A DNA stretch of 48,167 bases, taken from positions 1-48,167 of the forward strand of contig JAPPHK010000240.1 of assembly GCA_028820795.1 (NCBI GenBank), in the 5' to 3' direction. Made by a program: the position numbers and the translations under genes. The notes under the pieces were generated by a model. The model was not told the origin of the DNA. It searched no databases and saw only the letters and a program-made list of their open reading frames with translations. Source of the DNA: Nitrospinota bacterium. Lineage in GTDB: Bacteria > UBA8248. Shown one piece after another: positions 19,137 to 48,167 of the stretch (position 1 is the first letter of the stretch; each line of letters begins with the position of its first letter).

Positions 19137-20153
19137 ATGAAATTTTGCACCTTTGAAGTGCGAACACCTGTTGGACCATTCGAGCGTTTGGGAGCCGTTG
19201 TATCCGAAGGCAATGACCTCCGATACGTCGACCTCAATTTCGCTGCAGCTGCGGAGTTCAAACAGCGTGGCTCTTCACGACCCCAAGCCATGGCGGACGC
19301 CCTCATTCCATCCGAGATGCTCGCCATCGCGGCATCGGGCAGAGGCGGTGTTGAAGCCGCCGAAGAAGCGCTCGAATTCGCACTCGAAAATGAAGACGCT
19401 ACCGGACCTCGCGGGGAGCAAATCATTTATTCACCGAGCGAAGCCCGGCTGCTCGCGCCCATCAAACAACCCCCGCTCATTCGCGGCTTCGCCGGATTCG
19501 AGCGTCATCTTAAAAAAACATTCGAAGTGATGAACATGGAAATCCCCAAAACCTGGTACGAGCGCCCCCTTGCCTTCAAAGCGAGTTGTGGTCACATGGC
19601 CGGGCCCGAGGAGGAAGTTCCCTGGCCGAGCTTCACAGAGAAAATGGATTTCGAACTCGAGTTCTGCTGCGTTATCGGCGTGCCGGGGAGAGACATCTCT
19701 GAAGAAGATGCGCATGAGCACATCTTTGGTTACGCGATATTGAACGACTGGAGCGCCCGGGACGCGCAGGGCGGCGAAATGGCGATGGGAACAGGGCCAT
19801 ACAAGAGCAAAGACTGGTGCTGGAGCCTTGGTCCCTGGATAGCTACACCCGATGAGGTCGGCGATCCCAAAAACATTCCCATGGCCGCGAGAGTCAATGG
19901 AGAAACATGGGTGGAAACCACACCCGGGGAGATGTATTGGACTTTCTCTCAAATCATCGCCTACACCGCCAGGGATGAGAATCTCCTGACTGGGGACTTA
20001 ATGGGATCAGGCACCGTTCCAGGAGGATGCGGCATGGAGATGGAACGCTGGATTCAACCGGGCGATATCGTGGAAATTGACATGGGGCCGCTGGGGGTCA
20101 TGAGAAACAAGGTTGGCCTAAAGCCGGAGCCCAAACCCTACACGTACAAATAG
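19137..20153 (+). CDS. Fumarylacetoacetate hydrolase (FAH) family protein
   Basis: Motifs DFELEFCCVIG, GYAILNDWSARD and GDLMGSGT are typical of FAH-family hydrolases and isomerases. Confidence 0.8.
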   Translation: MKFCTFEVRTPVGPFERLGAVVSEGNDLRYVDLNFAAAAEFKQRGSSRPQAMADALIPSEMLAIAASGRGGVEAAEEALEFALENEDATGPRGEQIIYSPSEARLLAPIKQPPLIRGFAGFERHLKKTFEVMNMEIPKTWYERPLAFKASCGHMAGPEEEVPWPSFTEKMDFELEFCCVIGVPGRDISEEDAHEHIFGYAILNDWSARDAQGGEMAMGTGPYKSKDWCWSLGPWIATPDEVGDPKNIPMAARVNGETWVETTPGEMYWTFSQIIAYTARDENLLTGDLMGSGTVPGGCGMEMERWIQPGDIVEIDMGPLGVMRNKVGLKPEPKPYTYK

Positions 20154-33722: not shown

Positions 33723-34274
33723 CTAATTTTTGTGTTTCATTTCATGGAGCAAGAGCGCTATCTTCAGTGATACGCTACTGGCGAATCCGCCGAGCTCGCC
33801 CGAGCCCGCGATGACTCTATGTCATGGTATTATAAGTGGAACGGGATTTCTATGAAGCGCCTGGCCGACGGCGCGCGAAGCTTTCGGGTTTCCAATCTGA
33901 TTCGCCACCCAGCCGTAGGAGCGTGTCTCGCCATACGGAATTTTTTCCGTCTGCCTCAGCACCTTCCTCATAAAAGGCGTGAGAGGGGATAGGTCCGTCT
34001 TCAACTCAAAACTTTTTCGAGTGCCCTCTAGATACTCTTCAATCTCAATTGAAACTCGAAGACTCAATGACGTTGATTGTTCACTTGCATGATCAGCCAC
34101 GAGAGGTTTTTCCACCCCAGACAACATTCTGATTTCCGCTATACCCTCATCCGATACAAACACGGAGAATTCCGTACGCACCTTCTGGAGCCACTTGGCA
34201 ACATGATTTTCCAACGATTCCCCGTCTTTCTGGAACAACTCCCCCTGACGCCATTTATCCACCCGGCGCGCCAT
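33723..34274 (-). CDS. ogt: Methylated-DNA--protein-cysteine methyltransferase (Ogt/MGMT family) with in-frame TGA at the catalytic Cys codon; candidate selenoprotein, alternatively a fresh pseudogene
   Basis: The ORF-track product ends ...YGWVANQIGNPKASRAVGQALHRNPVPLIIP, then TGA (33822-33824). The same frame continues HRVIAGSGELGGFASSVSLKIALLLHEMKHKN to TAG (33723-33725). The family signature is (I/V)PCHRV. AAGGAG lies 8 nt upstream of ATG 34274. Confidence 0.6.
33787..33811 (-). promoter_or_regulatory. Candidate bacterial SECIS-like hairpin downstream of the ogt TGA
   Basis: On the coding strand there is a 7-bp stem (one G-U pair that exists only on this strand) with loop GGGC, spanning +14 to +31 after the TGA. 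It is extendable past a bulged G. I did not fold it computationally. Confidence 0.4.
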
Positions 34275-34297: not shown

Positions 34298-35494
34298 CTA
34301 AAACGCCGTGGCCACTCCTTTCACGTAGGCTTGCCCCGTTCGCAACCGCAAGATTTGATTCGTGCCGTCTGAATGCAAGAACGTACTGGCGTCGCGAAGG
34401 TATTTCTCCATGGGAGCATCGTGCATGATGCCCGCGCCGCCGAATACCTCCATGCCCAGACGCGCGCAATCAAAGGCGACTTCCGATGCGAAAACTTTGC
34501 ATTTCCATCCTTGCGTGAAATCATAGGGCTTTTGATGATCCACCGCCCAGGCGGTGCGCCAGATGTACGTGCGTGCAATGTCCAGATTCATTGCCATATC
34601 GGCGAGCATGGTTTCTATCGCCTGGTGCTGGCCGATGGGCTTGCCACCCTGGACTCGTTCACGGCTGTAGGCGAGCGCTTTTTCGAACGCGGCGCGTCCG
34701 ACACCTAGGGCCGTGGCGGCTGCTTCGGGTTTTCCCATCGCCAGGAGATTGCCCCTGATTTCGAACATGTTGCCTTCACCCAGAATCACATGGTTCTCGG
34801 GAATCTCGACATCTTCATAGAAAATTTCTGAATTCATCGAAAGACGCTGGCCAATTTTTTCATGTACTTCGCCTATCGATATGCCTGGAGTCTCTCTAGG
34901 CACCAGAAAGCCGGTTAAGCCTTCCCTCAAGTTTTTATTGAGGTCGGTTCTCGCCGCCAAAACATACAACGACGCAACAGGGCCGTTGCTGACATAGCGC
35001 TTCTTCCCATTGATGACCCATTTACCGCCTTCTTTCTCCGCGCGCGTATAAAGCGCAATGGAGGGATCGTCGTAATATCCCTGATGATCGGTTCCCGCTC
35101 CTTCTTCCGTCATGGAAATCGCAGCCAGGAATCTTGGTTCCTCACACAATCGTTTCATCCAGGGATCTCTGACTCCAGACTCTACTTTCTCGAAGATATG
35201 GGACAGCTTCCAAGTCTGATCCAGGTTCACCGCAAAACCAAGATCTCCCGCGGCAAGCTCTTCTCCCGCCAGACAGCACGAAAGCACATCTGCACCCATA
35301 CCACCATATTCTTTGGGATAAGGAAGTTGCCTTAAACCCAAAGCGCTCGCTTTTTCGGTCAGATCCCACGGCATCCGCTCTTCCCAGTCCTGAATCCGGT
35401 CTCTATCGGGAGCCACCGGAGCCAGTTCTTCATAGGAAAATTTTCTGGCTATTTCCTGAATCCGTATTTGCTCTTCATTCAACGTGAATTCCAT
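34298..35494 (-). CDS. Acyl-CoA dehydrogenase family protein
   Basis: The 398-aa protein has a typical ACAD layout (FTLNEEQ..., central beta domain, C-terminal ...FGGAGIMHDAPMEKYLRDA...EGTNQI). GGGAGGAG lies 5 nt upstream of ATG 35494. Confidence 0.85.
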   Translation of the reverse strand: MEFTLNEEQIRIQEIARKFSYEELAPVAPDRDRIQDWEERMPWDLTEKASALGLRQLPYPKEYGGMGADVLSCCLAGEELAAGDLGFAVNLDQTWKLSHIFEKVESGVRDPWMKRLCEEPRFLAAISMTEEGAGTDHQGYYDDPSIALYTRAEKEGGKWVINGKKRYVSNGPVASLYVLAARTDLNKNLREGLTGFLVPRETPGISIGEVHEKIGQRLSMNSEIFYEDVEIPENHVILGEGNMFEIRGNLLAMGKPEAAATALGVGRAAFEKALAYSRERVQGGKPIGQHQAIETMLADMAMNLDIARTYIWRTAWAVDHQKPYDFTQGWKCKVFASEVAFDCARLGMEVFGGAGIMHDAPMEKYLRDASTFLHSDGTNQILRLRTGQAYVKGVATAF

Positions 35495-35567
35495 GAACGC
35501 TCCTCCCGTCAATCACCCCTTGAAAGCGAGGCAAATAGTCAATCACTTTAAGGAAATCAAAAACGTA

Positions 35568-35951
35568 TCATGACGAACAAGACAATGCGCGATTAGCCGC
35601 ATCCATCTCCATGACGCCAGACGGCCTCTCAACGCCTTCGACGAAGGCAGCATCCGCACCGGCCATCTCAAGCTGAAAAACAACCTCGTTCAAGTCCGCG
35701 TTCGGAGATAGCAATATCCCTCGCCTCGCGGGCATACCCGTTTGAGCCACCTCGCCTACTTTCTGAAAAACTTCGGGAACACGAACAAACGCATCAAGGT
35801 CTTGTTTGTTTACGACGCCAATCAAACGCTTATTATCAAAAACCGCCGCCCAGGGCGCGTTTATCCTGTTCATGGCCGCCCAGGTTTCTCTAGCGTCTTC
35901 TTCCACTCCAACAATCGCTACCGCTTGCAAAAAACACTCCCTGACTTTCAT
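35568..35951 (-). CDS. CBS-pair domain protein
   Basis: The 127-aa protein has two CBS-like repeats (...AAVFDNKRLIGVVNKQDL... and ...AAFVEGVERPSGVMEMD...). Its start overlaps the upstream stop by 4 nt. Confidence 0.6.
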   Translation of the reverse strand: MKVRECFLQAVAIVGVEEDARETWAAMNRINAPWAAVFDNKRLIGVVNKQDLDAFVRVPEVFQKVGEVAQTGMPARRGILLSPNADLNEVVFQLEMAGADAAFVEGVERPSGVMEMDAANRALSCSS

Positions 35952-36649
35952 CGGTCGATGTTCTCGGCAACCGACAGATGACCAAAACGCGGCATCGCTT
36001 CAACTTTCAAAAACGTTGATTTCATCGATTTTATTTTCTCGAGCGGGTGTTGAGCAATTTCATTGGCCAGAGCCTTGGTTTCCCTCAACAAGTCTTTTTT
36101 CGATGTGACACGATTCACCAATCCTAAGCGATATCCCTCTCGCGCATCAAATCTTCTGCCAGTGAGCACTAAATCTTTCGCGGCTGGCACAAAAGTCTGT
36201 CGCGTCAGACGAACGGTAGCGTCTCCTCCTGGAAATACTCCCAACGCAGTCTCCGGATATCCCAAAACCGCGTCTCCCGCCGCAAGACGAATATCACATG
36301 AAAGCATCAACACCATTCCCCACCCGAAGGCGGGCCCGTTCACCGCCGCTATCGTCGGGATGGGCAGTTCACGAAGGGTTGTACTCCATCTCTCGCCCAA
36401 TAACATGAAGCGCTCTGCCTGTTCTTTCGTATGGGCAGCGCTTTCCTTGAGGTCGCGTCCTGACGAAAAAGAGCTTCCGGCGCCCGTCACGATAAGGACT
36501 TTAACGTCTTGCCTCCCTTTCATTTCATCCATCTTCTTGCACATGGCTTCCATCAATGGCGTGCTGAACGCATTTCGCAATTCCGGCCGATTCACGGTGA
36601 TACTCACGATTCCTGATTCTGCATGTATGATGAGGAGGTCTTTGTTCAT
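35948..36649 (-). CDS. Enoyl-CoA hydratase/isomerase (crotonase) family protein, copy 2
   Basis: Motifs ITVNRPELRNA, VTGAGSSFSSGRDLKE and AAVNGPAFGWGMVLMLSCDIRLA are present. ATG 36649 is preferred; the TTG at 36661 is the alternative. Confidence 0.8.
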   Translation of the reverse strand: MNKDLLIIHAESGIVSITVNRPELRNAFSTPLMEAMCKKMDEMKGRQDVKVLIVTGAGSSFSSGRDLKESAAHTKEQAERFMLLGERWSTTLRELPIPTIAAVNGPAFGWGMVLMLSCDIRLAAGDAVLGYPETALGVFPGGDATVRLTRQTFVPAAKDLVLTGRRFDAREGYRLGLVNRVTSKKDLLRETKALANEIAQHPLEKIKSMKSTFLKVEAMPRFGHLSVAENIDR

Positions 36650-36662
36650 ATTTCGCCACAAT

Positions 36663-36721: not shown

Positions 36722-37504
36722 TTATTCTCCGGTAAAAACAGGCTTCCTCTTCTCTTTGAACGCCGCCAGCGCCTCGGCGAAATCCTTGGTGTGATTCAAC
36801 GGCAACCTGAGGGCATTGGAAAACTCGATGGCCTGGCTGAGCGGCATATCGAGAGTTTGATCGATCGCTTTTTTCGCGCTCCGTACTCCCAAAGGGCCGT
36901 TGTCTCTAATCCTCTCCGCCATAGTAGTGGCTTCATCCATCAGTACATCCAGCGGATGCGCTCTGTTCACCAAACCGATGCGCTCCGCTTCTTTTCCATC
37001 GATTCTCTTGCTCGTGAAAACCAACTCTTTCGCCTGGCCGGCCGGCATGATTCTTTGAAGCCAGACTACGCCGCCTGCCCCGGGGAAGATGCCCAGGCTG
37101 CATTCCGGAAAACAAATAGTGGCTTCTTCAGCAGCCAGCCTGATATCGCATACCAAGGTAATTTCAACGCCCCAGCCGAATGTGTGGCCATTGATGGCGG
37201 CGATGGTGGGCATGGGCAAGCGTTCCCATAACGACGTTGCCGACATCACATAGCGCTGGTATTGATCGGCCATCTCCTTCGTATGCGTTGCGCTTTCTTT
37301 CAGGTCGCGGCCGGTGCTGAAACCACGTCCCTCTCCAGTGAGAATAACCACCCGCACATTTTGCGCGTCGGCCAAAGTTCGCGCCAATTCCACGAATTCT
37401 TCCGCCATCTTGAAACTGATTGCGTTCAGACTATCCGGACGGTCGAACTTCACTACCGCCAATCCATCTTTTTCCGTATAGGTTAACGTTTCAAATTCGC
37501 GCAC
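36722..37504 (-). CDS. Enoyl-CoA hydratase/isomerase (crotonase) family protein, copy 1
   Basis: Motifs VKFDRPDSLNA, LTGEGRGFSTGRDLKE and AAINGHTFGWGVEITLVCDIRLA are present. The GTG start has AGGAGAGGG upstream. Confidence 0.8.
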   Translation of the reverse strand: MREFETLTYTEKDGLAVVKFDRPDSLNAISFKMAEEFVELARTLADAQNVRVVILTGEGRGFSTGRDLKESATHTKEMADQYQRYVMSATSLWERLPMPTIAAINGHTFGWGVEITLVCDIRLAAEEATICFPECSLGIFPGAGGVVWLQRIMPAGQAKELVFTSKRIDGKEAERIGLVNRAHPLDVLMDEATTMAERIRDNGPLGVRSAKKAIDQTLDMPLSQAIEFSNALRLPLNHTKDFAEALAAFKEKRKPVFTGE

Positions 37505-37545: not shown

Positions 37546-38088
37546 TCAGCTTTTCAGGTGGCTGGCTACTTCTTCGACAAACTTCAGCGTCGTGTCTCTC
37601 ATTTCATCAGCCTGCAAATTACTGACCGGGTGAGGCAACTGAATATAGGGATGCCCTTCCATGCCCTTGCCACGGAACTGAAAGTCCGCCGCGTTCTTGA
37701 ACGCCTCGGTGATGATGGTCGTTGAAGGGACGCCCCGTTTTTCAAATTCAACCGTGTCGTGCACACTGCACAACGTGCAGGAGCCTCAGCCTCCCAAAGC
37801 GGCTATCGCCACATCCACCTCCTGGGCCATTTCTTCGATCATTTCATCAGTGGCCGGCTTCGAGTAATGCTCTTTGCGCCTCGATACGACTCTGGCCACG
37901 TCGTATTGCTCGCGTAGGGCATTCCCCAGGGTTTCCAAAATGATATCCGCTTGCTCCTTGGTGTTATCGAGGAGTCCCACCACCTTTCCCGAAAGATCGC
38001 CGGGCCGTTGCGCAAGCTCGATTCGTGCGGCCGACCCTCCCGCTGTCGGATCGATGAATCCCATTCCGTTCGCCATGGTTTTCTCCAT
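37546..38088 (-). CDS. UGSC-motif selenoprotein candidate (U-x-x-C), split into two ORFs by TGA in the ORF track
   Basis: ORFs 37786-38088 and 37546-37773 are in the same frame. Read through the TGA (37786-37788), the junction is ...VAIAALGG-U-GSCTLCSVHDTVEFEKRG.... The M of the second ORF is an internal TTG Leu codon. ATG 38076 (GGAG upstream) is an alternative start. Confidence 0.7.
37756..37774 (-). promoter_or_regulatory. Candidate bacterial SECIS-like hairpin downstream of the UGSC TGA
   Basis: On the coding strand there is an 8-bp stem (one strand-specific G-U pair) with apical GUG, spanning +12 to +30 after the TGA. An alternative 6-bp hairpin spans +6 to +20. Confidence 0.4.
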
Positions 38089-38270
38089 ATAATATGTGAA
38101 TTCAACCGGACTTAAATCATATCCCGCAATTCATTCCTTGTCTACGATATCAGCCTATTCGTTATTTCCATGAATATGCGAATGTTGGTTTATCCGCTTC
38201 TCAGATTCGCCAAATTTTGGCAAAATCAAGTCTAATTTACGGAAAACCTCTTACCTTAAGGAGCAGACAA

Positions 38271-40532
38271 ATGGCCGATTACGATATCATCGGCAAGTCG
38301 AATGTTCGATACGACGCGATTCCAAAAGCTGATGGCTCCATGCCTTATGGAGAAGACGCGATACCCGCTGGCGCCCTGCTGTGCGGCGTACTGTTTACGC
38401 CCATCCCCGTAGGCCGCTTGAAAAAACTCGACACCTCAAAAGCCGAAAAAATCCCAGGCGTAGCCGCCATTCTGACTGCAAAGGATATTCCGGGCACAAA
38501 CGCGCGATTCAGCTCCGGCACGCCGGGCCTGCCCCATCAGCCAGTGCTGGTGGAAGACAAGATTGAATTCACCGGAGATGCCCTCGCTATCGTTGGCGCC
38601 GAAAACAGAGAAGCGCTTGATGCCGCAATATCGGCAATCGAAGTGGAAATCGAGTCGGAAGAGGGCGTGTGGACAACGCGTCACGATGAAACAAGCGCCG
38701 AAAAACGACAAGCGTGTGACTTTGAAGCTACCCGCGGAGACGTAAAGAGAGCGTTTGACGAAGCCGATGTGGTGATTGAGAAAACATACACTACGCAACT
38801 CGCTGAACACGCCTTCCTGGAACCCGCTTCCGGTACTTCCTGGATGGAGGAAGACGGCGTCATCACCATCCGCGTCGGAACCCAACTCATTGAATACTAT
38901 CGCGCCATTGCGGCGATTTTAGGAATCTCGCATAGCCGCGTCCGCCACCTCGGCACTTATGTCGGCGGCGGATTCGGCGCCAAGGGCATGTTGACTGTAG
39001 AGCCTTACCTGGCGCTGCTCACCTGGCATACGCAAAGGCCCGCCGTCATGGTGCTGGGTCGCGAGCACGGCATCAGAAATACCTCGAAAAAACATCCTTT
39101 CTATATGAGATACAAAACAGGAGCGACCAAGGACGGGAAAATCCTTGCCGTAGAAGCGGATATCGTGGGCGATGCAGGCGCCTATCCGTACAAATCCAAT
39201 CTATTCCTCTTGGGCGCGATGTGCATCGCCGCAGGCCCTTACGATGTCCCCAACGCAAAAATTCGCGCCCACGGCTATCTCACCAACAATCCCATCACGA
39301 ACGCGATGCGCGGTGTAGGGTCGAACCAGGTTTGCTTCGCATATGAGACTCAAATGGACCTGGTGGCGGACGCCATCGGGATGGATAAATACGAATTCCG
39401 GCGGAAAAATTTCATCCAGAAGGGCCAGGAACTGCCGACCGGGCAGAAAATTCCTTATGAACCGAACCTGGAAGGATGTCTCGACAGTGCGCTTCAGGCC
39501 TTGGGTGATCCCGCAGAACCAGGCCCGGGAAAACGCATTGGCAGGGCGGCGGCAGCGAACATCACTGGTTACGGAAGACCGCATGACGATGCGAATGCGG
39601 CGGTTCACCTCGAGCCGGATGGCAGCGCCGTTGTTCGCGTGAGCGCGCCGGACATAGGCGCCGGCCAGGGCGCTACGCTTCAAAGCATCACGGCTGAAAC
39701 CCTCGGGCTCAGGCTCGACCAGGTATCCACCCGCCTGTCAGATTCCGCCACAACACCACTCTCGGGAATCACGGCAGGTTCCCGCCAAACACTCATGGCG
39801 GGGCACGCTGTTCGACTTGCCGCAGACGAGGTACGGAAAGCCGTGACCAAAGGCGCAGCTGCGTTACTTGAAGCTGCAGAGGAGGACATTCGCCTTGGAG
39901 GTGGTGAGGCTTGGGTGGCGTCCGCTCCCGAGAGAAGACTCGGCATCGGTGCAGCTGCTGGCGAAGCGAAAAAAATGGGTGAAGCGCTACATTGCACCCA
40001 TGGCTACAACATGCCGGGACATGAGTACGAGAATCCGGAGCGATACATGAACGGCATGGGCGGATGGTCGGACTACACCTTTGGTGTTCATGCAAGTGAA
40101 GTGGAAGTCGACATCGAGACCGGCGAAGTGAATCTCTTGAAGCACGTCGCTTCCCACGATGTCGGACGAGCGCTGAATCCTCAAAGTGTTGAGGGGCAAT
40201 TCGAAGGCGGCGCGGTGATGGGGATTGGTTATGCGCTGCATGAGGAAATCACCATGGTGGAAGGTGACTGTCGATCACAAAGCTTCCACGAGTACCTGAT
40301 CCCTACTTCATCGGATATCGGCGAGTTTGAGTGTGTTGTTCTTGAATGTGGGGAGGGCGCAGGCCCATATGGTGCACGAGGCGTCGGAGAGCCTCCTTGC
40401 AATAATGCGCCGGCCGCCGTTGCTCTTGCCATCAATGATGCGATAGGCACGGAAGTCTACGATTTACCCATCACGCCCGAACGTGTTTGCTGGGCAGTCA
40501 CGAAGAAAAACGGTAAAAGCAACGGCCATTAA
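38271..40532 (+). CDS. Xanthine dehydrogenase / aldehyde oxidase family molybdopterin-binding subunit
   Basis: An N-terminal a/b-hammerhead-like segment (...LLCGVLFTPIPVGRLKKLDTSKAEKIPGVAAILTAKDIPG) and a C-terminal GARGVGEPP active-site context are present. AAGGAG lies upstream of ATG 38271; the ORF-track start is 38217. Confidence 0.85.
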   Translation: MADYDIIGKSNVRYDAIPKADGSMPYGEDAIPAGALLCGVLFTPIPVGRLKKLDTSKAEKIPGVAAILTAKDIPGTNARFSSGTPGLPHQPVLVEDKIEFTGDALAIVGAENREALDAAISAIEVEIESEEGVWTTRHDETSAEKRQACDFEATRGDVKRAFDEADVVIEKTYTTQLAEHAFLEPASGTSWMEEDGVITIRVGTQLIEYYRAIAAILGISHSRVRHLGTYVGGGFGAKGMLTVEPYLALLTWHTQRPAVMVLGREHGIRNTSKKHPFYMRYKTGATKDGKILAVEADIVGDAGAYPYKSNLFLLGAMCIAAGPYDVPNAKIRAHGYLTNNPITNAMRGVGSNQVCFAYETQMDLVADAIGMDKYEFRRKNFIQKGQELPTGQKIPYEPNLEGCLDSALQALGDPAEPGPGKRIGRAAAANITGYGRPHDDANAAVHLEPDGSAVVRVSAPDIGAGQGATLQSITAETLGLRLDQVSTRLSDSATTPLSGITAGSRQTLMAGHAVRLAADEVRKAVTKGAAALLEAAEEDIRLGGGEAWVASAPERRLGIGAAAGEAKKMGEALHCTHGYNMPGHEYENPERYMNGMGGWSDYTFGVHASEVEVDIETGEVNLLKHVASHDVGRALNPQSVEGQFEGGAVMGIGYALHEEITMVEGDCRSQSFHEYLIPTSSDIGEFECVVLECGEGAGPYGARGVGEPPCNNAPAAVALAINDAIGTEVYDLPITPERVCWAVTKKNGKSNGH

Positions 40533-40709: not shown

Positions 40710-41729
40710 TTACACATCAAATTTTTTTGTAACCGCTCGACACGCCACGGTAATTCCGTGCATGACCATACTCGAAGGCGAACCCATGCTTCCAGCAACC
40801 AATAAATGAAGATCGTCAGGATCTCCAACCACAGGCACAAAAAAACTGTCATCATTTACATTCACGGGAAACGGCCAGCGATCCGCGCCTTTCTCGCCTC
40901 TCCAGATGCCGCCGCGCTTTATATTCCCTATAGTGCGCCCACCCATTTCTAATAATTGTTGATGAACATCACTGCGAGTCAGCCCGGCGTCGGCGCACAG
41001 GTGCGCATGTTGCGCGCCCAGAACAACCGCCATATCTGCTTGCCGATACATATTTGGCCCACCCAATGCGGACATCATATCGGCAACCGTTGTAAGAAGA
41101 CGGTCAGGAGTCAGGCTCGCATCGTCCCATACCTGCACCGGTCCTTCGAGAGGAATCATGGTCACCACGTTATCGCTCTCCGAAAACCCTTTCGATTCCG
41201 CATACGACTCCCAAGGCGATTCCTCCTCGTTCTCCCGGATGCAAAAAGTGTTTCGCCAAGGGCCGCCAAAACCGCCGAGACAGGTAATTCCGGGAATACC
41301 ACCTCCCACATTCATCATGATGAGCCTCACGGCACGGCCGATAGTCAGGTTTGCGCGAAATCCGGGGCCCATGCAGCCCACGCCGCCATGCATCCCGATT
41401 TCTCTGGCGTAGGGGCCATTGACCAACAGAAAAGGCGCGCCCGCGCTCGTCGTTGCCTGAATCAGGTTTACGTTAAAACGCTCATCAAGAAGCGCTTCCA
41501 GTCCCGCTATCAACACCGGCATGTATTCAGGCTTGCAGCCCGCCATCACGGCATGGGCCGCCACGCCTTGGATGCTGAGTTCCCCACCCGCCGGTGCGAC
41601 ATGACCGAGTACTTCGCTCGGCTCCCTTGTCGTTCCCGAGAGCATCAAAGCGATTCTCTCATCCGTGGGCGTCACGACAGGCAGGCCGTCCGACCATTCC
41701 TTGTCAAAGAAAAACTCGAATTCATCCAT
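40710..41729 (-). CDS. Uncharacterised conserved protein, tandem paralog 1 of 4
   Basis: The 339-aa protein starts MDEFEFFFDKEWSDGLPVVTPTDERI. It shares HAVMAGCKPEYMPV and NGPYAREIGMHGGVGCMGPGFRANLTIGRAVRL blocks with the next three genes. GAGGAAG lies upstream. Confidence 0.75.
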   Translation of the reverse strand: MDEFEFFFDKEWSDGLPVVTPTDERIALMLSGTTREPSEVLGHVAPAGGELSIQGVAAHAVMAGCKPEYMPVLIAGLEALLDERFNVNLIQATTSAGAPFLLVNGPYAREIGMHGGVGCMGPGFRANLTIGRAVRLIMMNVGGGIPGITCLGGFGGPWRNTFCIRENEEESPWESYAESKGFSESDNVVTMIPLEGPVQVWDDASLTPDRLLTTVADMMSALGGPNMYRQADMAVVLGAQHAHLCADAGLTRSDVHQQLLEMGGRTIGNIKRGGIWRGEKGADRWPFPVNVNDDSFFVPVVGDPDDLHLLVAGSMGSPSSMVMHGITVACRAVTKKFDV

Positions 41730-41764
41730 GCATTCTTCCTCAGAAGCAAACCTGGCGGAATGGC

Positions 41765-42781
41765 TTATGGTTGATAGCCAGACGATATCGCCTCACTGCC
41801 ATCCACCCAACCAGGCATAACGGCCGTCACCGGCCCGGGCGTACCCCCTGCGACGAGAAGTATCAGATCATCTTCATCCTTAACCGCCGGAACCAGAAAC
41901 GAATCATCTTGCAGATCCGCGTCAATTGGCCACTTGGCTATCATCTCCTCACGCCAATAGCCCGACTTTTTCAGCTCTCCCAAAGGTCGGCGCGCAAGTT
42001 CCATAATTCGGCGATGGACATCTTTTTTCCCCAATCCAGCATCCGAACACATACGCGCATGATCCGGCCCCAAAGCAACTACAACTTGGGTTTTCAGCCA
42101 GATGTTCAACGAACCTAAAGTGGATATTTTATCCGCTAATCCTACGAAAAAAGATTCCGGCTCCTTGGAATAATCATCGATATATCCTTGAGGCGCCTCC
42201 GTCATCACGGCGGTTACGACATCGTCATCCTGTTGGAACCCTCTCGTGACGGACAACGGCTCCCAGGGACTTTCCGCTTCATTCTCGGCGATACAAAAAG
42301 TATACCTGGCGGGTGAGCCGAACGTACTCATCGAGGCAAAAACCGGCACACCGCCGCCCAGGTTCATGAGAATCAGCCGGATGGCGCGACCAATCGTCGC
42401 ATTCGCCCGAAAACCCGGGCCAAAGCATCCCGTGCCTCCATGCAGGCCGATTTTTTGCGCATAAGGGCCATTCACGATAATTAGAGGTGCTGCGCTATGC
42501 ATGGTGCCTTGTACGCCGTTCAGGTTGAGTTTCGGCGCAAGAAGCGCTTTAAGACCAGCAATAACGACGGGCAAAAACGAAGGCTCACACCCCGCCATCA
42601 CGGCGTGCGCGGCTATCGCTTCGACGCTGGCTTCCCCCATGAGGGGCGGAACCAAGCCAAGGACTTCCGAAGCCCCGTGTCTTGTGCCCGAGAGCATGTT
42701 CGTAATTCGTTCTTGGGTCGGGGGAACAATCGGCAAACCGTCCGACCAGGATTTTTGAAAGAAAAACTCGAATTCATCCAT
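41765..42781 (-). CDS. Uncharacterised conserved protein, tandem paralog 2 of 4
   Basis: The 338-aa protein starts MDEFEFFFQKSWSDGLPIVPPTQERI and carries the same conserved blocks. Confidence 0.75.
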   Translation of the reverse strand: MDEFEFFFQKSWSDGLPIVPPTQERITNMLSGTRHGASEVLGLVPPLMGEASVEAIAAHAVMAGCEPSFLPVVIAGLKALLAPKLNLNGVQGTMHSAAPLIIVNGPYAQKIGLHGGTGCFGPGFRANATIGRAIRLILMNLGGGVPVFASMSTFGSPARYTFCIAENEAESPWEPLSVTRGFQQDDDVVTAVMTEAPQGYIDDYSKEPESFFVGLADKISTLGSLNIWLKTQVVVALGPDHARMCSDAGLGKKDVHRRIMELARRPLGELKKSGYWREEMIAKWPIDADLQDDSFLVPAVKDEDDLILLVAGGTPGPVTAVMPGWVDGSEAISSGYQP

Positions 42782-42822
42782 GGGAATATGACACCGCTTT
42801 ACCTGTCATTGCGGCCGCGGCG

Positions 42823-43857
42823 CTAGACCTCATAGGCGCCATGAACGGCCCGGCTGCCACCGCTCCAACCATGGCAGACAGCGCTGCCCGATCCCCAGCC
42901 GCCTGCAACGATCAAGTGCAGATCACGTGAGTCCTTGATGACGGGAACGAAAAATTCGTCGTCATCGGGGTCCACATGAATATACATATCCAGGGCGCGC
43001 TCTCGCCGCCAGTTACCGCCTCTTTTCAACTCCTTCACTTTGTGACCGGCCAACTCGCATAGACGCCGATGCACGTCTGCGCGCGCGAGGCCTCCCTCGG
43101 AACAAATTTTCGCATGCTGGGGATTCATGGCGACAACCATATCGGTCCTGGGCGCGTGCATGTTCCAGGAACCCAAACCCGTCATCGCATCGGCGATTCC
43201 TCTTAGCAGCCTCTCGGGCTCCTCGCTGACGTCATCGAAGGTCAGGCGTGGGCTTTCCACCATGGCCATGGTGATTACATTCTCGTCCGTCCCGTATCCT
43301 CTCGATTCAGCGAGCGTCTCCCAGGGGTGAAACTGGAGGTTCTCGGTGACGCACGCGGTATAACGCAACGGCGTGCCGAAAATCGTCATGGAAGAAACGC
43401 CCGGGATGCCCCCGCCTAAGTTCATTAAAATCAGGCGGATCGCGCGGCCAACGCTAGCGTTGGCCCTGAAACCGGGACCAAAACAGCCATTGCCCCCGTG
43501 AATACCGATTTCCTGCGAATAAGGGCCGTTCACGATCATCAACGGCGCTACGCCGTGCATCGTACCCTGCACGCCGTTCATGTTGAATTCATCGAGAAGC
43601 ATAAGCGAAGTGGCACCGAGTACGACCGGCAGATATTCCGGCTTACAGCCGGCCATCACCGCATGGACCGCCACGCTATGGACCGTAGCCTCCCCCATGG
43701 CGGGAGGAACTTGGCCTATCAGTTCGGCCGGATTTCTCTTCGTGCCCGAGAGCATGCGCTCGATGCGCTCTTCCGTAGGAGTGACGACGGGCAAGCCGTC
43801 CGACCAGGGTTTTTCCAGAAAAAACTCGAATTCATCCTGAGGATCGCTCAAAACCAT
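42823..43857 (-). CDS. Uncharacterised conserved protein, tandem paralog 3 of 4
   Basis: The 344-aa protein starts MVLSDPQDEFEFFLEKPWSDGLPVVTPTEERI and carries the same conserved blocks. Confidence 0.75.
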   Translation of the reverse strand: MVLSDPQDEFEFFLEKPWSDGLPVVTPTEERIERMLSGTKRNPAELIGQVPPAMGEATVHSVAVHAVMAGCKPEYLPVVLGATSLMLLDEFNMNGVQGTMHGVAPLMIVNGPYSQEIGIHGGNGCFGPGFRANASVGRAIRLILMNLGGGIPGVSSMTIFGTPLRYTACVTENLQFHPWETLAESRGYGTDENVITMAMVESPRLTFDDVSEEPERLLRGIADAMTGLGSWNMHAPRTDMVVAMNPQHAKICSEGGLARADVHRRLCELAGHKVKELKRGGNWRRERALDMYIHVDPDDDEFFVPVIKDSRDLHLIVAGGWGSGSAVCHGWSGGSRAVHGAYEV

Positions 43858-43884
43858 TCACCTCAAAAGATATCGGGGGGCTCA

Positions 43885-44916
43885 TCATGATTCATATGCG
43901 CGGGAAACCGAACGGCTGCTCCCGTTCCAGCCGTGCATCACAGCGGTTATCGGCCCCGGAACGCCGCCCGCCACGATCAAGATCAGCCTTTGGGCCTCTT
44001 TTATCGTCGGAACGAACGCTTCGTCATCTTCCAGATCGACGGGCATCGGGAAGTCTCTGATGCGATTTTCCCGGAAATGTCCCCCCGTTTTCAGTTCGCC
44101 CACCGTGCGGCCGGCGATTTCGCAAAGCTTTCCGTGGACATCCGACTTTGAATACCCCTTCTTTGCGCAAATCGAAGCCTGTTGCGGGCTCATCGCCACC
44201 ACCAAATCCGTGTTGGCCCAACAATTCCACGAACCCAGATGCGACATGGTGTCCGCAATAGAGGGCAACATGCGCTCGGGATCGTCGCTCACGTCATCCC
44301 AGGACATGACGGGACCTTCCACGTGCACGGCGGTGACGACGTTCTCCTCTGCGCCAAAACCCATCGACTGCGCAAGTGACCCCCAGGGGCTTTCCGATTC
44401 ATTCTCGGCGATGCAGTACGTGAACCTCCCCGGTTGTGAGAACGTGCTCATCGAGGTGATGCCCGGTATTCCGCCGCCGATGTTGAGGAGCAAAAGCCTG
44501 ATGGCGCGGCCGATCGTCGCGTTGGCTCTGTTTCCGGGGCCGAAACAGCCGAGACCGCCGTGCAGGCCGATTTCCCTGGCGTAAGGGCCGTTCACGATCA
44601 AAAGGGGCGCCGCGCAGGACAGCGTCGCCTGCACGCCGCCCACGTTGAATTTTTCTTCCAGCATGGCCTCCACGGCTCCGAGGAGAACGGGCATGTACTC
44701 CGGCTTGCATCCGGCCATGACGGCATGAACGGCGATGGTCCGAACGTCCGCCGGCGCCAGAAGCGGCGGTACGTCGCCGATGACTTCGTCCGGGTCGCGG
44801 CTCACCGCCGCCAGCATGAGGCCCAGACGTTCTTCCGTCGGGGGGATGACCGGCAGGCCGTCCGACCAGGGTTTATCGAAGAAATACTCGAACTCGTCCA
44901 CGGGAGGAACGCTCAC
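43885..44916 (-). CDS. Uncharacterised conserved protein, tandem paralog 4 of 4
   Basis: GTG 44916 (GGAGG 6 nt upstream) gives VSVPPVDEFEYFFDKPWSDGLPVIPPTEERL. The ORF-track start at 44979 adds 21 non-homologous residues. This copy is visibly more GC-rich than paralogs 1-3. Confidence 0.7.
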   Translation of the reverse strand: MSVPPVDEFEYFFDKPWSDGLPVIPPTEERLGLMLAAVSRDPDEVIGDVPPLLAPADVRTIAVHAVMAGCKPEYMPVLLGAVEAMLEEKFNVGGVQATLSCAAPLLIVNGPYAREIGLHGGLGCFGPGNRANATIGRAIRLLLLNIGGGIPGITSMSTFSQPGRFTYCIAENESESPWGSLAQSMGFGAEENVVTAVHVEGPVMSWDDVSDDPERMLPSIADTMSHLGSWNCWANTDLVVAMSPQQASICAKKGYSKSDVHGKLCEIAGRTVGELKTGGHFRENRIRDFPMPVDLEDDEAFVPTIKEAQRLILIVAGGVPGPITAVMHGWNGSSRSVSRAYES

Positions 44917-45067
44917 GAAATGCCTCCGGTCAATTATCCGAGGAAAGGGATACGCCTGTTTCGCCGCACAAATATACATGGGCGCTGGACAGATTGCGAG
45001 TCCGTGTCGTTAGAATACGCCCGAGATGCTATCCTCCGTAAACACCTCATTTACAGGAGCTTATACC

Positions 45068-45454
45068 ATGCCGATCTACAGAAATCTCGCCGGCCGTAAC
45101 CAGGGAAAGGCGGCCGACTACGTGACCGCCGACGCCGCGTGGGTCGATGGCGTTCACACCACCATCGGTTACTTCCGCATGGCGGCGCACGGCCATTCCA
45201 ACCCCCACTATCACCACGACGAGCAGTTCCTCTATCTCCTGAAGGGCGGGCTGCGGATCGCCGTGGAAGGAGAGATACTGGAAGCAGCGCCCGGAGATCT
45301 CGTGCAGTTCCGCCCGGGCGAGGTGCACGAGATCATGGCGCTCGACGAACCCGTGGAGCTTCTTCTCACGAGGTCTCCGGCGCGGCCGGGTCTCGAGGTG
45401 CTCGCCGTGACGCCCGAGGGAGCGCGCGCCAGGAGCCTCCTGCGCCCCGAATAG
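45068..45454 (+). CDS. Cupin domain protein
   Basis: The pattern HSNPHYHHDEQFLYLLKGGL ... PGEVHE fits the cupin motifs. AGGAG lies 8 nt upstream of ATG 45068; the ORF-track start is 45026. Confidence 0.65.
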   Translation: MPIYRNLAGRNQGKAADYVTADAAWVDGVHTTIGYFRMAAHGHSNPHYHHDEQFLYLLKGGLRIAVEGEILEAAPGDLVQFRPGEVHEIMALDEPVELLLTRSPARPGLEVLAVTPEGARARSLLRPE

Positions 45455-45645
45455 CCTCATCGGCGCAACGCCAATGTTATCAGCTTGTTTCACGGCATCA
45501 CCATGCGCGGTGCGGCCCGCGGACGGCCCCGTTTCGCCCTCCGCGCGTGAGCCGCTCTCGCCGGAATCCTCCCTGCAGCGTCTCGCCGCCCAGGCGAGTG
45601 CCCGGGATTTCATGCCCGCGAATCCGCGCATCAGCGCGCGAATCA

Positions 45646-45810
45646 CACCCCCGCAACTCCCCGCATCTGCCGTTACCGCAGGCGGGGCGGGCCGTGGCAG
45701 AATTCTCCTGCGCCGCCGGAGCTGCGCCCATTTCCGAGCAAAAAAATCTCCATTTATTTATCGAAATACCCCGTGAATTTATCGAATTTTATCGAAATTT
45801 TTGGAAATTC
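45646..45810. repeat. Right (inverted) copy of the long-range repeat seen at 1-165
   Basis: See feature 1-165. It has the same iteron triplet (atttatcgaaa / tttatcgaat / ttatcgaaat) and the same acggcagatgcgggNagttgcggggg core, in opposite orientation. Confidence 0.8.
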
Positions 45811-45811
45811 A

Positions 45812-45924
45812 TTTTTTCCGGACGCGCCCGGCCGCTTCACCATCCTACGCGAGTTTTCCTCGAGGCCCACGACGGCAATTGCGGGGAATTGCGACCGAGA
45901 AGAGTCAAACCCGATCGGGGAGGG
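45812..45924. repeat. Direct repeat unit A1 (~112 bp)
   Basis: It matches 46022-46135 with 7 substitutions and 1 indel by my count. Confidence 0.85.
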
Positions 45925-45989
45925 AGGTCGATTCCGACCGAGGAGGGAGGTCGATTCCGACCGAATAGGGAGGAATCGAACCCGGCCGG
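45921..45989. repeat. Three tandem 23-bp units, each with a GGTCG-N4-CGACC mini-hairpin (third unit degenerate)
   Basis: The sequence agggaggtcgattccgaccgagg / agggaggtcgattccgaccgaat / agggaggaatcgaacccggccgg is read directly. Confidence 0.8.
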
Positions 45990-46021
45990 GGAACGGGCGT
46001 TAGCCGGGTGAGGAGAGGTCC

Positions 46022-46135
46022 GTTTTTCCCGGACGCGCCAGGGCGCTTCACCATCCTACGCGAATTTTCCTCGAGGCTCATGACGGCAACTGCGGGGAAT
46101 TGCGACCGAGAAGAGTCAAACCCGACCGGGGAGGG
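46022..46135. repeat. Direct repeat unit A2 (~112 bp)
   Basis: This is the partner of A1. It is followed by GGTCG-CTCT-CGACC: the same stem with a different loop from the hairpins after A1. Confidence 0.85.
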
Positions 46136-46433
46136 TCGCTCTCGACCGATCAGGGAGAGAGCGGGATCATCCACCGGCGCGGCCGGCGCGTGCGGCGGAC
46201 CGGGCGAGCGGGATGAATTCCGCGCGGTCCGGTTTTATCCAGAGCGGGGAGGGAGGGATCAACCGCAAGGTGGGATGAGTGGATCGGAGGGAATCATGCT
46301 TCACTCGCCCTTTCTCGGCTTGAAAACCAACCCCCCCTTAACGGGACCGTTGAAATAGTCCTTACGGGGGGATGATGCCCCACAAAGAGCACCGTCCAAT
46401 GCGGGAGGGTGGTTTTGCTCTTCGCTTTTGATC

Positions 46434-46573
46434 GTCATTCCGGCGAAAGCCGGAATCCAGAGCGGACGGGAGTCGATGAAAGCGCGGGATAGACAATCCG
46501 GTGGAAGTGGCGGTGTTTCTTCGACTCCGGGTTTTCCCATCGGTACTGGATTCCGGCGCAAGGCCGGAATGAC
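46434..46573. mobile_element. MITE-like 140-bp element with 27-28-bp hairpin-forming terminal inverted repeats
   Basis: gtcattccggcGAAAgccggaatccag (46434-46460) pairs with the reverse complement of ctggattccggcGCAAGGccggaatgac (46546-73). A nested inverted repeat is present: cgggagtcga (46467-76) with tcgactccgg (46521-30). There is no coding capacity. Confidence 0.55.
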
Positions 46574-46626
46574 GCCCAAAAACAAGGGGCGCGTTCGCGA
46601 CCCGAGGTTCGACCACCAAATGCAAA

Positions 46627-46697
46627 GGGACGCATATATGCGTCCCCTGCGGCGATATTGCGGGAATTCGCAGGGGCGGTTCGCGAACCGCCCCTGC
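46627..46697. repeat. Two perfect palindromes (20 nt and 28 nt)
   Basis: gggacgcatatatgcgtccc (46627-46646) and gcaggggcggttcgcgaaccgcccctgc (46670-46697) are read directly. Confidence 0.85.
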
Positions 46698-46803
46698 TTT
46701 CTCAACAACCCCGCCTTGGTCGGGTTTGACCCTCAAGAGGGAGTGGTCTCCCTCTTCCGCAGGGACAGGCCACGGCCCGTCCCTGAAAAATCCGTCTTTC
46801 CGC

Positions 46804-48167
46804 CTACCAGCGCCTGGAGCCCCGCAGCAGCACGCCGCTCTCGGGCGCCGCGCCGTCCGCGGGTTCGGTGAGCGAAGCCTCCAGCTCCAGGTCGAGGGCC
46901 GGCCCCAGGCTCCAGCGCGCGCCCGCGCGCCAGGTCTCGCCGCCCTCCGAGTGCGAAAGGCCCGCATACGGCGTCAACAGCCCCCGGTAGGCGGCGAGGC
47001 CGTAGCCCACCTCCGCTTCGAGCCGCGCCCCGGGGTCGAAGTTTCTCGCGGAGACGCCCTGCGCCTGCGACCACAGCCGCTCCGCGCCGCCCGAGTCCGC
47101 CCCCCAGGCGGAGGCCAGGCTCATCGACAGCCCGCGTCCGCCCGAAGCCGGGGCGTAGCGCATCGATCCGCTCACCCCCCATTCCTCATAATCGCTCTCC
47201 TCGTGCTTCACCAGGGCGCGCGCGCCCACCTCGAGCGTGAGGCGCTTCGCCGCGAAGCGCAGGCTTCCGCCGACTTCGAGGCCGCTGCCGGTCTCCGCGT
47301 CGCCCCGCTCGTGGCGGTAGCCCACCTCCACCGAGGGCGTCAGCACGCCGGCCGCCCCCAGCCGGAACGAGCGCGAGCCCTCGAGCAGCAGGCGGAGGCG
47401 CATCGTGTCCGCCTCGACTTCGGGCAGGCCCGCCGCCGCGTCCGAACGCGACGCGCTCAGCAGGAAGTCCCCGCGCAGCGCGAGTTCGAACCCGCCGGCC
47501 ATGCGCGCCGGGAGCAGGATTCCGCGCCCCCCCGCCGCCGTCATGCCCGACTCGATGTCCGTCTCGACCGGCGCCGCGCCGCGCCGGGTCTGTATCGTCA
47601 TGTCGCCCCGGCCCATGCCCAGCGCCCCCCACAGGGAGAGCCGCTCGCTCAACTGATAGCGCAGGTAGGGGTAGACGCCCGTGAGCGCGCTCTCCACCTC
47701 GCAGGCGCTCCGGCACGACCCGCCCGCGCGGTAGCTCCCCTCGCCCCTGCTCAGCGCGAGCGCCACGCCGACGAGCGCGGCGCCCGATTCGAAGTCCAGG
47801 CCCAGCGTCGCCGTCGTCACCTCGCCCTCGAGCGCCAGGCCGTCCGCCGCGCCCTCGAAGTTCGAGCGCGCCCCCCGGCCCCACGCCGACCAGCGCGCGC
47901 CCGCCTCCATGCTCTCCGCGGAGGCCAGGTGGAAGGAGCTCGCGAGGAGCACCTCGCTCATCCTGAGCTCGCGCCAGACCGCGTCCACGTCCTCGCCCGT
48001 CCGCTCGTTCAGGGCGCGTCCGGTGAGGGGGCGGTCCGCCCCCGGGAGCAGCGCGTCCGCGTGCGCGCCCATGTTCTGGCCGCCGATCGTCACGCCGCCC
48101 GCCTGCCCGCGCAGGCGCGCCTCGATGGCGCCGGCCACGTGGTCCGACGCCGCGCGCGAGAAGCGCG
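46804..48167 (-). CDS. Autotransporter outer-membrane beta-barrel domain protein, 5' end outside the window
   Basis: There are alternating beta-strand patterns with Gly/Ala/Ser/Arg-rich turns, and the C-terminus ends ...VLLRGSRRW (terminal aromatic). The frame stays open upstream of the GTG at 48138 to the window edge. The gene is very GC-rich. Confidence 0.6.
   Translation of the reverse strand, partial: RFSRAASDHVAGAIEARLRGQAGGVTIGGQNMGAHADALLPGADRPLTGRALNERTGEDVDAVWRELRMSEVLLASSFHLASAESMEAGARWSAWGRGARSNFEGAADGLALEGEVTTATLGLDFESGAALVGVALALSRGEGSYRAGGSCRSACEVESALTGVYPYLRYQLSERLSLWGALGMGRGDMTIQTRRGAAPVETDIESGMTAAGGRGILLPARMAGGFELALRGDFLLSASRSDAAAGLPEVEADTMRLRLLLEGSRSFRLGAAGVLTPSVEVGYRHERGDAETGSGLEVGGSLRFAAKRLTLEVGARALVKHEESDYEEWGVSGSMRYAPASGGRGLSMSLASAWGADSGGAERLWSQAQGVSARNFDPGARLEAEVGYGLAAYRGLLTPYAGLSHSEGGETWRAGARWSLGPALDLELEASLTEPADGAAPESGVLLRGSRRW

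Follow-up and report, generated by a model that had tools for sequence, protein, structure and literature searches.

Four tandem paralogs of an unassigned protein family from Nitrospinota and their partnership with the UGSC selenoprotein, a candidate two-component reductase

What is the function of four consecutive, diverged gene copies that match no described protein family? The question is raised by positions 40710-44916 of contig JAPPHK010000240.1 from a Nitrospinota bacterium (assembly GCA_028820795.1), whose 48,167 nucleotides, the whole stretch that was analyzed, are referred to below as the window. The protein family encoded by the four tandem genes is given the working name FAM, and the genes are numbered c1 to c4 in the order of their transcription (Table 1). 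A first-pass annotation made from the letters of the window had left the family unassigned, had mentioned a UGSC-type selenoprotein candidate and an orphan molybdenum hydroxylase subunit as nearby context, and had considered a redox or cofactor-handling role conceivable. The analysis described here identified UGSC as the partner of FAM, and we lean toward the reading, drawn from sequence comparisons and structure models, that the FAM proteins are paralogous substrate-binding catalytic subunits of a two-component redox enzyme formed with UGSC, which would act as a reductase for organic acids.

FAM genes and their UGSC partner

Loci encoding FAM were mapped in three sets: 76 from reference genomes (first scan), 10 annotated plasmid loci of cultured organisms, and 80 more found with a fusion-protein profile (second scan). 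UGSC was counted as coupled when a UGSC gene or domain lay within 400 bp of a FAM gene or was fused to it. Coupling was found in 25/29 evaluable loci outside the window's lineage in the first scan, in 59/67 evaluable loci from many phyla in the second, and in the plasmids of cultured bacteria and haloarchaea at 8/10 loci by tblastn and 10/10 when Pfam was added. The genes typically follow one another as FAM-UGSC, FAM-FAM-UGSC, or UGSC-FAM. About 20 UGSC-FAM or FAM-UGSC fusions are present among the best 150 family representatives, as are seven FAM-FAM double-domain proteins of ~710 amino acids, and many of the UGSC/FAM fusion gene calls end exactly at the selenocysteine (Sec) codon. FAM is almost always a constant partner of the UGSC selenoprotein, across bacteria and archaea. 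The placement of FAM in a multi-component system, as proposed in the first-pass annotation, gained support. UGSC is the neighbor that had been noted, but it is more than context, being the defining partner that is adjacent or fused in many phyla.

One natural fusion, P0138, was modeled as a single docked two-domain protein with a predicted local distance difference test score (pLDDT) of 84.9, a predicted template-modeling score (pTM) of 0.84, and a disordered linker. A fold search with this model was informative for the UGSC domain only, to which it gave a flavodoxin-like fold with template-modeling scores (TM) to the targets of 0.5-0.57. The Cys/Sec of this domain is located at a strand-to-helix junction.

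Such an association has been glimpsed before. UGSC was placed among the major aquatic selenoprotein families by the 2008 Global Ocean Sampling study (PMC2398784), which also recorded its fusion with a conserved-Cys domain of no assigned function, "Unknown_1" (PMC2398784, Zhang and Gladyshev 2008). That domain is probably the FAM family. A 2026 review lists UGSC among the prokaryotic selenoproteins with largely uncharacterized functions (PMC13188914). A search of the literature on UGSC and on selenoproteins with thioredoxin reductase, TctC, or PrpD yielded no functional study, and the papers searched gave no account of the systematic FAM-UGSC pairing, of the paralog arrays, or of the TrxB, TctC, and PrpD settings.

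In the window, one UGSC gene accompanies the four FAM genes and lies outside their operon, 2.6 kb away. With its TGA read through, the product scores 149 bits against NF041046 (cutoff 125) and 176 bits against PF24696 (cutoff 25), and by these scores the gene is predicted to encode a full member of the UGSC family. TGA occupies the U position in 63/66 UGSC genes of the first locus set, the other three having no readable motif, and TGA-containing UGSC genes number 148 over all loci. A SECIS-like (selenocysteine insertion sequence) hairpin begins 11 nucleotides after the UGA and has an 8-bp stem in the minimum-free-energy fold. Its nucleotide sequence is kept across phyla, with a consensus stem of 6 bp and one compensatory G-C/C-G pair in 6/17 sequences. 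Support for a SECIS element is modest, as these nucleotides also encode protein and the 66-nucleotide fold has a z-score that is not significant. No tRNA genes or Rfam families were found in the window, and no Sec machinery genes were seen among the window open reading frames (ORFs) scanned. A second predicted selenoprotein gene of the window encodes an O6-methylguanine-DNA methyltransferase, in which the TGA falls exactly at the active-site Cys (...VPLIIP-U-HRVIAGSGELGGF...); Sec-containing forms of this family are already on record (PMC13188914).

One UGSC subfamily (P0138-type fusions, loci L060 and L094), usually encoded 5' of FAM and beside MmgE/PrpD genes, has the motif H-C/U-G-(A/S)-S, in which Ser stands in place of the second Cys of U-x-x-C. 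As this Cys is absent there, another thiol must finish the redox cycle, and Cys65 of FAM is the obvious candidate.

When 28 diverse UGSC proteins were compared with NCBIfam, 17/28 matched TIGR01917 (GrdB; best E = 1.2e-5) and 13/28 matched TIGR01918, the general model for selenoprotein B of glycine/betaine/sarcosine/D-proline reductase, while the GrdH, GrdF, and PrdB models were matched by 10, 9, and 5 of them. The GrdB, GrdF, GrdH, and PrdB matches span the Sec region, and none of the scores comes anywhere near its curated cutoff; no unrelated NCBIfam model recurred in more than two of the 28 proteins. Pfam GRDB was ruled out as a home for UGSC. To us this pattern indicates that UGSC is distantly homologous to the portion of selenoprotein B that carries Sec, without belonging to that family.

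Family, fold, and conserved residues

The inability of the first-pass annotation to place the family was borne out. None of the four proteins matched a Pfam-A or NCBIfam profile even at E <= 1, and 72 diverse FAM members searched at E <= 5 gave scattered single matches with no recurring family. PDB sequence and profile searches with FAM found nothing, and the profile searches as a whole returned no confident match to a characterized family. A profile-profile comparison of UGSC with FAM revealed no relationship, and FAM as a diverged UGSC or GrdB domain was therefore ruled out.

The family is large. A word-indexed search with c3 returned at least 7,929 significant homologs; among the 120 matches listed, none carried a Pfam domain and the names given were nearly all "hypothetical protein". 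When 1.84 billion representatives were searched exhaustively with a profile, FAM came to 6,152 clusters at 50% identity, and E <= 1e-30 was reached by 1,734 of these. These thousands of "hypothetical proteins" merit a family model of their own. Genome scans placed FAM in Nitrospinota, Tectomicrobia/Entotheonella, Chloroflexota (SAR202, Dehalococcoidia), Beta-, Alpha-, Gamma-, and Deltaproteobacteria, Rokubacteria/Methylomirabilota, Binatia, Acidobacteriota, Actinomycetota, Bacillota, Poribacteria, and haloarchaea. The nearest relatives of the window among the matches listed are Nitrospinota metagenome-assembled genomes, with ~91-92% protein identity.

The tandem arrangement described by the first-pass annotation agrees with the ORFs. 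The intergenic gaps are 35, 41, and 27 nucleotides, the collinear proteins share 51-55% pairwise identity, in keeping with the estimate of about half, and every motif block named there is present in c1-c4. The start of c1 is most likely GTG 44916, as a GGAGG lies 7 nucleotides 5' of it; the alternative ATG at 44979 would give a protein of 364 amino acids. A promoter and terminator scan of the window gave nothing above chance. All four copies are under purifying selection, with ratios of nonsynonymous to synonymous substitution rates (dN/dS) of 0.03-0.18 overall against orthologs from two related genomes (c1, 0.11-0.18; c2, 0.03-0.10; c3, ~0.07; c4, 0.07-0.10).

In a neighbor-joining tree, every window copy clusters with its positional ortholog from other Nitrospinota. 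The positional orthologs of c1 are in loci L003, L017, and L019 and in the Tectomicrobia locus L001. Copy c2 falls together with its positional orthologs, Tectomicrobia L001_c2, and the Betaproteobacteria/Chloroflexota clade, and c4 with its positional orthologs and copies from other Nitrospinota (L028, L029). Two of the four window copies have Tectomicrobia counterparts, and the FAM-FAM pairs of Betaproteobacteria split into two position-specific clades. From this topology the duplications appear to be old and retained. A recent lineage-specific tandem duplication, which the first-pass annotation had raised together with the lack of a conserved neighborhood, is ruled out by the tree, the positional orthologs, and the conserved neighborhood. 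One to four diverged paralogs are found per FAM locus, and genomes can hold multiple loci. Since natural FAM-FAM fusion proteins exist, pairing of FAM subunits is plausible; the four copies of the window may form a hetero-oligomer or may be a set of substrate-specific isoforms.

Conservation over the whole family was measured in 138 near-full-length domains from diverse representatives (residue numbers are those of c3). Gly64, Arg132, and Glu166 are conserved in 100% of the domains, Asn127 in 98%, and Cys65 and Trp173 in 97%, and the W-x-D-G-L-P motif is 89-97% conserved. The first-pass annotation had counted three invariant Cys. This holds in c1-c4 and in the subfamily alignment of 62 sequences, but not family-wide, where Cys65 of the AGC block is the sole near-universal Cys. 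Cys163 of the C-x-x-EN block is kept in 87%, and Cys119 of the G-C-x-GPG block in only 31%, being mostly replaced by Ala or Val. With these frequencies, a three-Cys metal cluster cannot be a feature of the whole family and was rejected as such. A fourth Cys, C245, is invariant in c1-c4 and at least 90% conserved in the 62-sequence alignment.

The AlphaFold model of c3 (pLDDT 87.5, pTM 0.89) was searched against the PDB. The top 21 fold matches were class I fumarate hydratases from two organisms (best E = 2.9e-4, probability 0.91) with TM of just 0.26-0.31 and root-mean-square deviations of 12-16 Å, and the remaining matches, CyuA among them, were weaker or partial. The monomer prediction and profile searches suggested by the first-pass annotation thus yielded a confident model with weak fold matches and no family. 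FAM could be a hydro-lyase resembling class I fumarate hydratase, with an Fe-S cluster (or another metal site) bound by the three Cys of the window's subfamily. It would hydrate or dehydrate di- or tricarboxylates, and UGSC would do no more than repair or protect it. The consistent fold matches, the three Cys invariant in the window's subfamily, and the presence of PrpD, aconitase X, and carboxylate transporters among the neighbors would fit this idea, but the superposition is poor, FAM has no sequence or profile similarity to such families, two of the three Cys are lost in some members, and a hydro-lyase would not account for a fusion to a Sec domain that is nearly obligate. The ligand Cys of fumarate hydratase are, we assume, also spaced differently from the Cys of FAM, which lie 54 and 44 residues apart. 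We regard the hydro-lyase as unlikely and treat FAM as having no close solved structural relative.

A proposed reaction and the gene neighborhoods

The analysis showed that FAM and UGSC are genetically coupled and at times fused, that a natural fusion is confidently modeled as two docked domains, that certain residues are kept throughout the family, and that UGSC is remotely related to GrdB. From these results we infer a reductase activity together with its electron path and chemistry. The flavodoxin-like UGSC domain, with Sec (or Cys) at its strand-to-helix junction, would dock onto a FAM subunit holding a small organic acid, whose carboxylate would be gripped by Arg132 and Asn127, and Glu166 and Asp14 of FAM would serve the acid-base steps. 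The selenolate would attack the substrate carbon adjoining the carboxylate. It could add to an unsaturated di- or tricarboxylate, for example one made by a PrpD-type dehydratase, or it could displace a leaving group from that carbon in the manner of the glycine, betaine, and proline reductases. A thiol, from Cys65 of FAM or the second Cys of U-x-x-C, could then attack the selenium and free the reduced product. The resulting Se-S or S-S bond would be reset by thioredoxin reductase and thioredoxin, whether encoded in the operon or housekeeping. In the genome studied here, a single UGSC would serve four anciently diverged FAM paralogs, as isoforms for different substrates or as members of a hetero-oligomer, and the substrate of FAM probably differs between paralogs. 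A redox role, which the first-pass annotation had held conceivable, is the best reading, in line with the Sec partner, the occasional trxB and trxA genes, and the conserved Cys65, Arg132, and Glu166.

More tentatively, and with rather less than even confidence, we suggest that FAM and UGSC form a new enzyme class lacking an organic or metal cofactor, in which a selenolate on the small flavodoxin-like subunit and a thiol on FAM, whose catalytic fold would be a new one, reduce unsaturated di- or tricarboxylates or alpha-substituted organic acids with electrons from the thioredoxin system. With the same reserve, we suggest that its hosts are aerobic bacteria of marine, freshwater, and soil habitats as well as haloarchaea. 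If true, a function would be provided for a selenoprotein family that ranks among the most abundant in aquatic environments and for an unannotated family of >6,000 clusters, and selenoprotein-B-type chemistry would reach beyond anaerobic amino-acid fermentation into aerobic organic-acid metabolism. Through one specific unannotated partner family, UGSC passes from an orphan selenoprotein to a defined two-gene enzyme open to testing, for which Roseovarius, Paracoccus, Variovorax, Arthrobacter, Vibrio europaeus, and haloarchaea are indicated as tractable cultured hosts.

The operons of such hosts give the pair its metabolic setting. The gene order is LysR, FAM, UGSC, trxB in Roseovarius, with a CaiB-type CoA-transferase and a TRAP transporter adjoining; trxB, trxA, FAM, UGSC in Arthrobacter; and trxB, TctC, SDR, FAM, UGSC in Variovorax SRS16. 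In V. boronicumulans, a TrxB-like flavoprotein and TctC precede a UGSC-FAM fusion. In Sporomusa, the fusion is followed by a FAD oxidoreductase and an MFS transporter, with aconitase X adjoining, and in Vibrio europaeus it stands between aconitase X, DUF126, and a small opposite-strand gene on one side and an enolase-family gene on the other. Among haloarchaea, Natrinema has UGSC, FAM, a CoA-transferase, and HMG-CoA-lyase-like and enoyl-CoA hydratase genes, and Halalkalicoccus has UGSC, FAM, a CoA-transferase, and a TRAP transporter. Paracoccus carries a split UGSC with FAM. In P. ferrooxidans pFER4 (locus L082), selB lies ~3 kb from this pair, and DsrE, TusA, and cysteine desulfurase genes are upstream; this plasmid marks a cultured host suited to studying the Sec form.

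TctC solute receptors are the commonest neighbor in the metagenomic loci (24/146 neighbor ORFs) and lie within 5 kb of FAM in 29/43 and 17/80 loci, and a CoA-transferase lies within the same distance in 3/10 and 13/80. TRAP transporters, enoyl-CoA hydratases, acyl-CoA dehydrogenases, and LysR/GntR regulators are frequent as well. In the subfamily with UGSC preceding FAM, a MmgE/PrpD-family gene stands beside or a few genes from the pair (L088/L089, L091-L094, L176-L179), and the neighbors there further include GntR regulators, Ldh_2, FAA-hydrolase, UbiD, and CoA-transferase. What these neighborhoods have in common are functions for taking up and breaking down di- and tricarboxylic acids and their CoA esters, joined in some cases by a dedicated NAD(P)H-disulfide reductase.

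Some further features of these loci were seen in passing. The UGSC of the Arthrobacter sp. ERGS1:01 plasmid (L083, 7000-7815) has a C-terminal extension with a weak NifU-like match (E = 4e-6, just above the Pfam cutoff). The Arthrobacter trxB-trxA-FAM-UGSC operon directly follows a phosphosulfolactate synthase gene, and a short gene annotated as such (155 amino acids) lies ~2 kb from the Natrinema pair on the opposite strand.

Several observations weigh against the two-component reductase. TrxB is present in a minority of loci only (4/10 cultured and 4/80 second-scan loci) and not at all in the window. The neighbor genes vary widely, and therefore no single substrate can be named. The matches of UGSC to GrdB are individually weak even at their best, and Pfam GRDB was matched by 0/28 proteins. 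GrdE/PrdA-type models of Pfam and NCBIfam were matched by 0/72 FAM members, so that the likeness to glycine and proline reductases can be functional only. In the window's own lineage, UGSC does not adjoin the FAM array and heads another operon beyond the molybdenum hydroxylase gene, and two further Nitrospinota loci (L042, L072) pair FAM with a gene of that kind and have no UGSC.

The window itself reads, in order, cupin (+), four FAM genes (-), xanthine dehydrogenase (XDH)-family subunit (+), and then UGSC, two enoyl-CoA hydratases, the 127-amino-acid ORF, and acyl-CoA dehydrogenase (-). This gene order is found again in ~20 related genomes, and Tectomicrobia have a version with three FAM genes. 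The block from UGSC to acyl-CoA dehydrogenase is syntenic in most close loci (L002-L021, L031, L034), a few of which miss one gene, and the cupin is beside the array in 28/35 loci of the Nitrospinota/Tectomicrobia group, and in Tectomicrobia L001.

Table 1. Coordinates of features of the window discussed in the text
Feature	Position	Strand	Remarks
MmgE/PrpD-family gene	14378-15784	-	
FAA-hydrolase-family gene	19137-20153	+	
O6-methylguanine-DNA methyltransferase gene	33723-34274	-	PF01035; TGA at 33822-33824
Acyl-CoA dehydrogenase	34298-35512	-	downstream of UGSC
127-aa ORF	35568-35951	-	no Pfam/NCBIfam match; position kept in Nitrospinota and Tectomicrobia loci
Enoyl-CoA hydratase, second	35948-36661	-	downstream of UGSC
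Enoyl-CoA hydratase	36722-37504	-	downstream of UGSC
UGSC family selenoprotein (predicted)	37546-38088	-	180 aa; TGA at 37786-37788 in ...AALGG-U-GSC...
SECIS-like hairpin	37756-37774	-	
XDH/aldehyde-oxidase-family Mo-cofactor-binding large subunit	38217-40532	+	PF01315, PF02738, PF20256; between UGSC and FAM array
FAM c4	40710-41729	-	339 aa; last gene of the array
FAM c3	41765-42781	-	338 aa; copy used for the structure model
FAM c2	42823-43857	-	344 aa
FAM c1	43885-44916	-	343 aa from GTG 44916; first transcribed; keeps D14, C65, N127, R132, E166
Small cupin	45026-45454	+	142 aa; PF07883; divergent from FAM array
ORF with weak outer-membrane beta-barrel/autotransporter matches only	46804-48138	-	444 aa

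The XDH-family gene is divergent from UGSC, and its product scores below the cutoff of every NCBIfam equivalog; no genes for 2Fe-2S or FAD subunits were seen among the window ORFs scanned. The first-pass annotation had seen in this neighbor a molybdenum hydroxylase context for the array. The orphan subunit indeed adjoins the array and lies within 5 kb of FAM in 28/35 Nitrospinota/Tectomicrobia loci, but it is rare elsewhere (3/43, 0/10, and 2/80 loci). It is conceivable that FAM serves this orphan hydroxylase locally, as an electron-transfer, maturation, or S/Se-delivery partner replacing its Fe-S and FAD subunits, given the position of the XDH gene between UGSC and the array, the arrangement kept in both phyla, and the two related loci (L042, L072) that hold a single FAM with XDH and no UGSC. 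We nonetheless hold this to be distinctly unlikely, since outside this lineage XDH is seldom near FAM and UGSC nearly always is, and since FAM shows no recognizable Fe-S, flavin, or XdhC-like features.

No more probable, in our estimate, is a role for FAM and UGSC outside catabolism, as a thiol/selenol stress-defense pair that detoxifies peroxides, disulfides, or electrophiles. The thioredoxin system linked to some operons and the recurrence of glutathione S-transferase genes nearby (6/146 neighbor ORFs) would suit such a pair, as would the view that most prokaryotic selenoproteins found by bioinformatics are redox proteins (PMC13188914). Stress defense would not account for operons with solute-binding proteins, LysR/GntR regulators, PrpD, CoA-transferases, and acyl-CoA enzymes, and the one to four diverged paralogs per locus, with several loci per genome, suggest substrate diversification.

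MmgE/PrpD and FAA-hydrolase families, which directly adjoin UGSC-FAM pairs elsewhere (L088-L094, L176-L180), are also represented in the window, 20-25 kb from the array and too distant to count as linked. At the other end, from ~45500 to 48167, the G+C content climbs from ~0.52 to 0.62-0.70 and long ORFs overlap on both strands; a foreign origin or a join made during assembly might explain this end.

Comparison with known systems

The systems most similar to FAM-UGSC in design are protein B of glycine, sarcosine, and betaine reductase (GrdB/F/H with GrdE/G/I) and D-proline reductase (PrdB with PrdA). In GrdE and PrdA, a Cys gives rise to the pyruvoyl group. That FAM is their analogue, cleaving itself between Gly64 and Cys65 to give a pyruvoyl group that binds an amine while UGSC carries out reductive C-N cleavage, is most improbable: the remote relation of UGSC to GrdB and PrdB, the near-universal Cys65 preceded by the invariant Gly64 in A-G-C, and some loci near proline/hydroxyproline-type genes (aconitase X with DUF126, ornithine cyclodeaminase family, DHDPS family) speak for it, but no FAM member resembles the GrdE/PrdA models, the c3 model puts Cys65 in a short turn joining two helices, and most neighborhoods are those of carboxylate and acyl-CoA metabolism and not of amino-acid fermentation.

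With the two-component reductase again as the preferred reading, FAM-UGSC looks like a stripped-down, non-homologous counterpart of the selenoprotein B reductases in aerobic organic-acid metabolism. Both consist of a Sec subunit with U-x-x-C and a separate substrate-specific subunit, and the Sec domain of UGSC weakly but recurrently matches the GrdB, GrdF, GrdH, and PrdB models. Both come with several paralogous substrate subunits, and the trxB and trxA genes of some FAM-UGSC operons recall the grd operons, which carry both. The differences are equally plain. FAM has no detectable similarity to GrdE, GrdG, GrdI, or PrdA; UGSC, with only ~150-180 amino acids, lacks the long N-terminal part of GrdB; and equivalents of GrdA, GrdC, and GrdD were not seen in the annotated FAM-UGSC neighborhoods. 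FAM-UGSC is found mostly in aerobic or facultative bacteria of water and soil and in haloarchaea rather than in amino-acid-fermenting anaerobes, and the gene context is that of carboxylate and acyl-CoA catabolism.

The second comparison is with the class I (4Fe-4S) fumarate hydratases and the alpha-type tartrate dehydratases, which are the best fold match of FAM in the PDB and a consistent one. Di- and tricarboxylates would be the substrates in both cases, for FAM as judged from its gene context. The two nevertheless differ in that TM is low, sequence identity is 9-13% and no profile match was obtained, and in that the candidate cluster Cys are not conserved across FAM.

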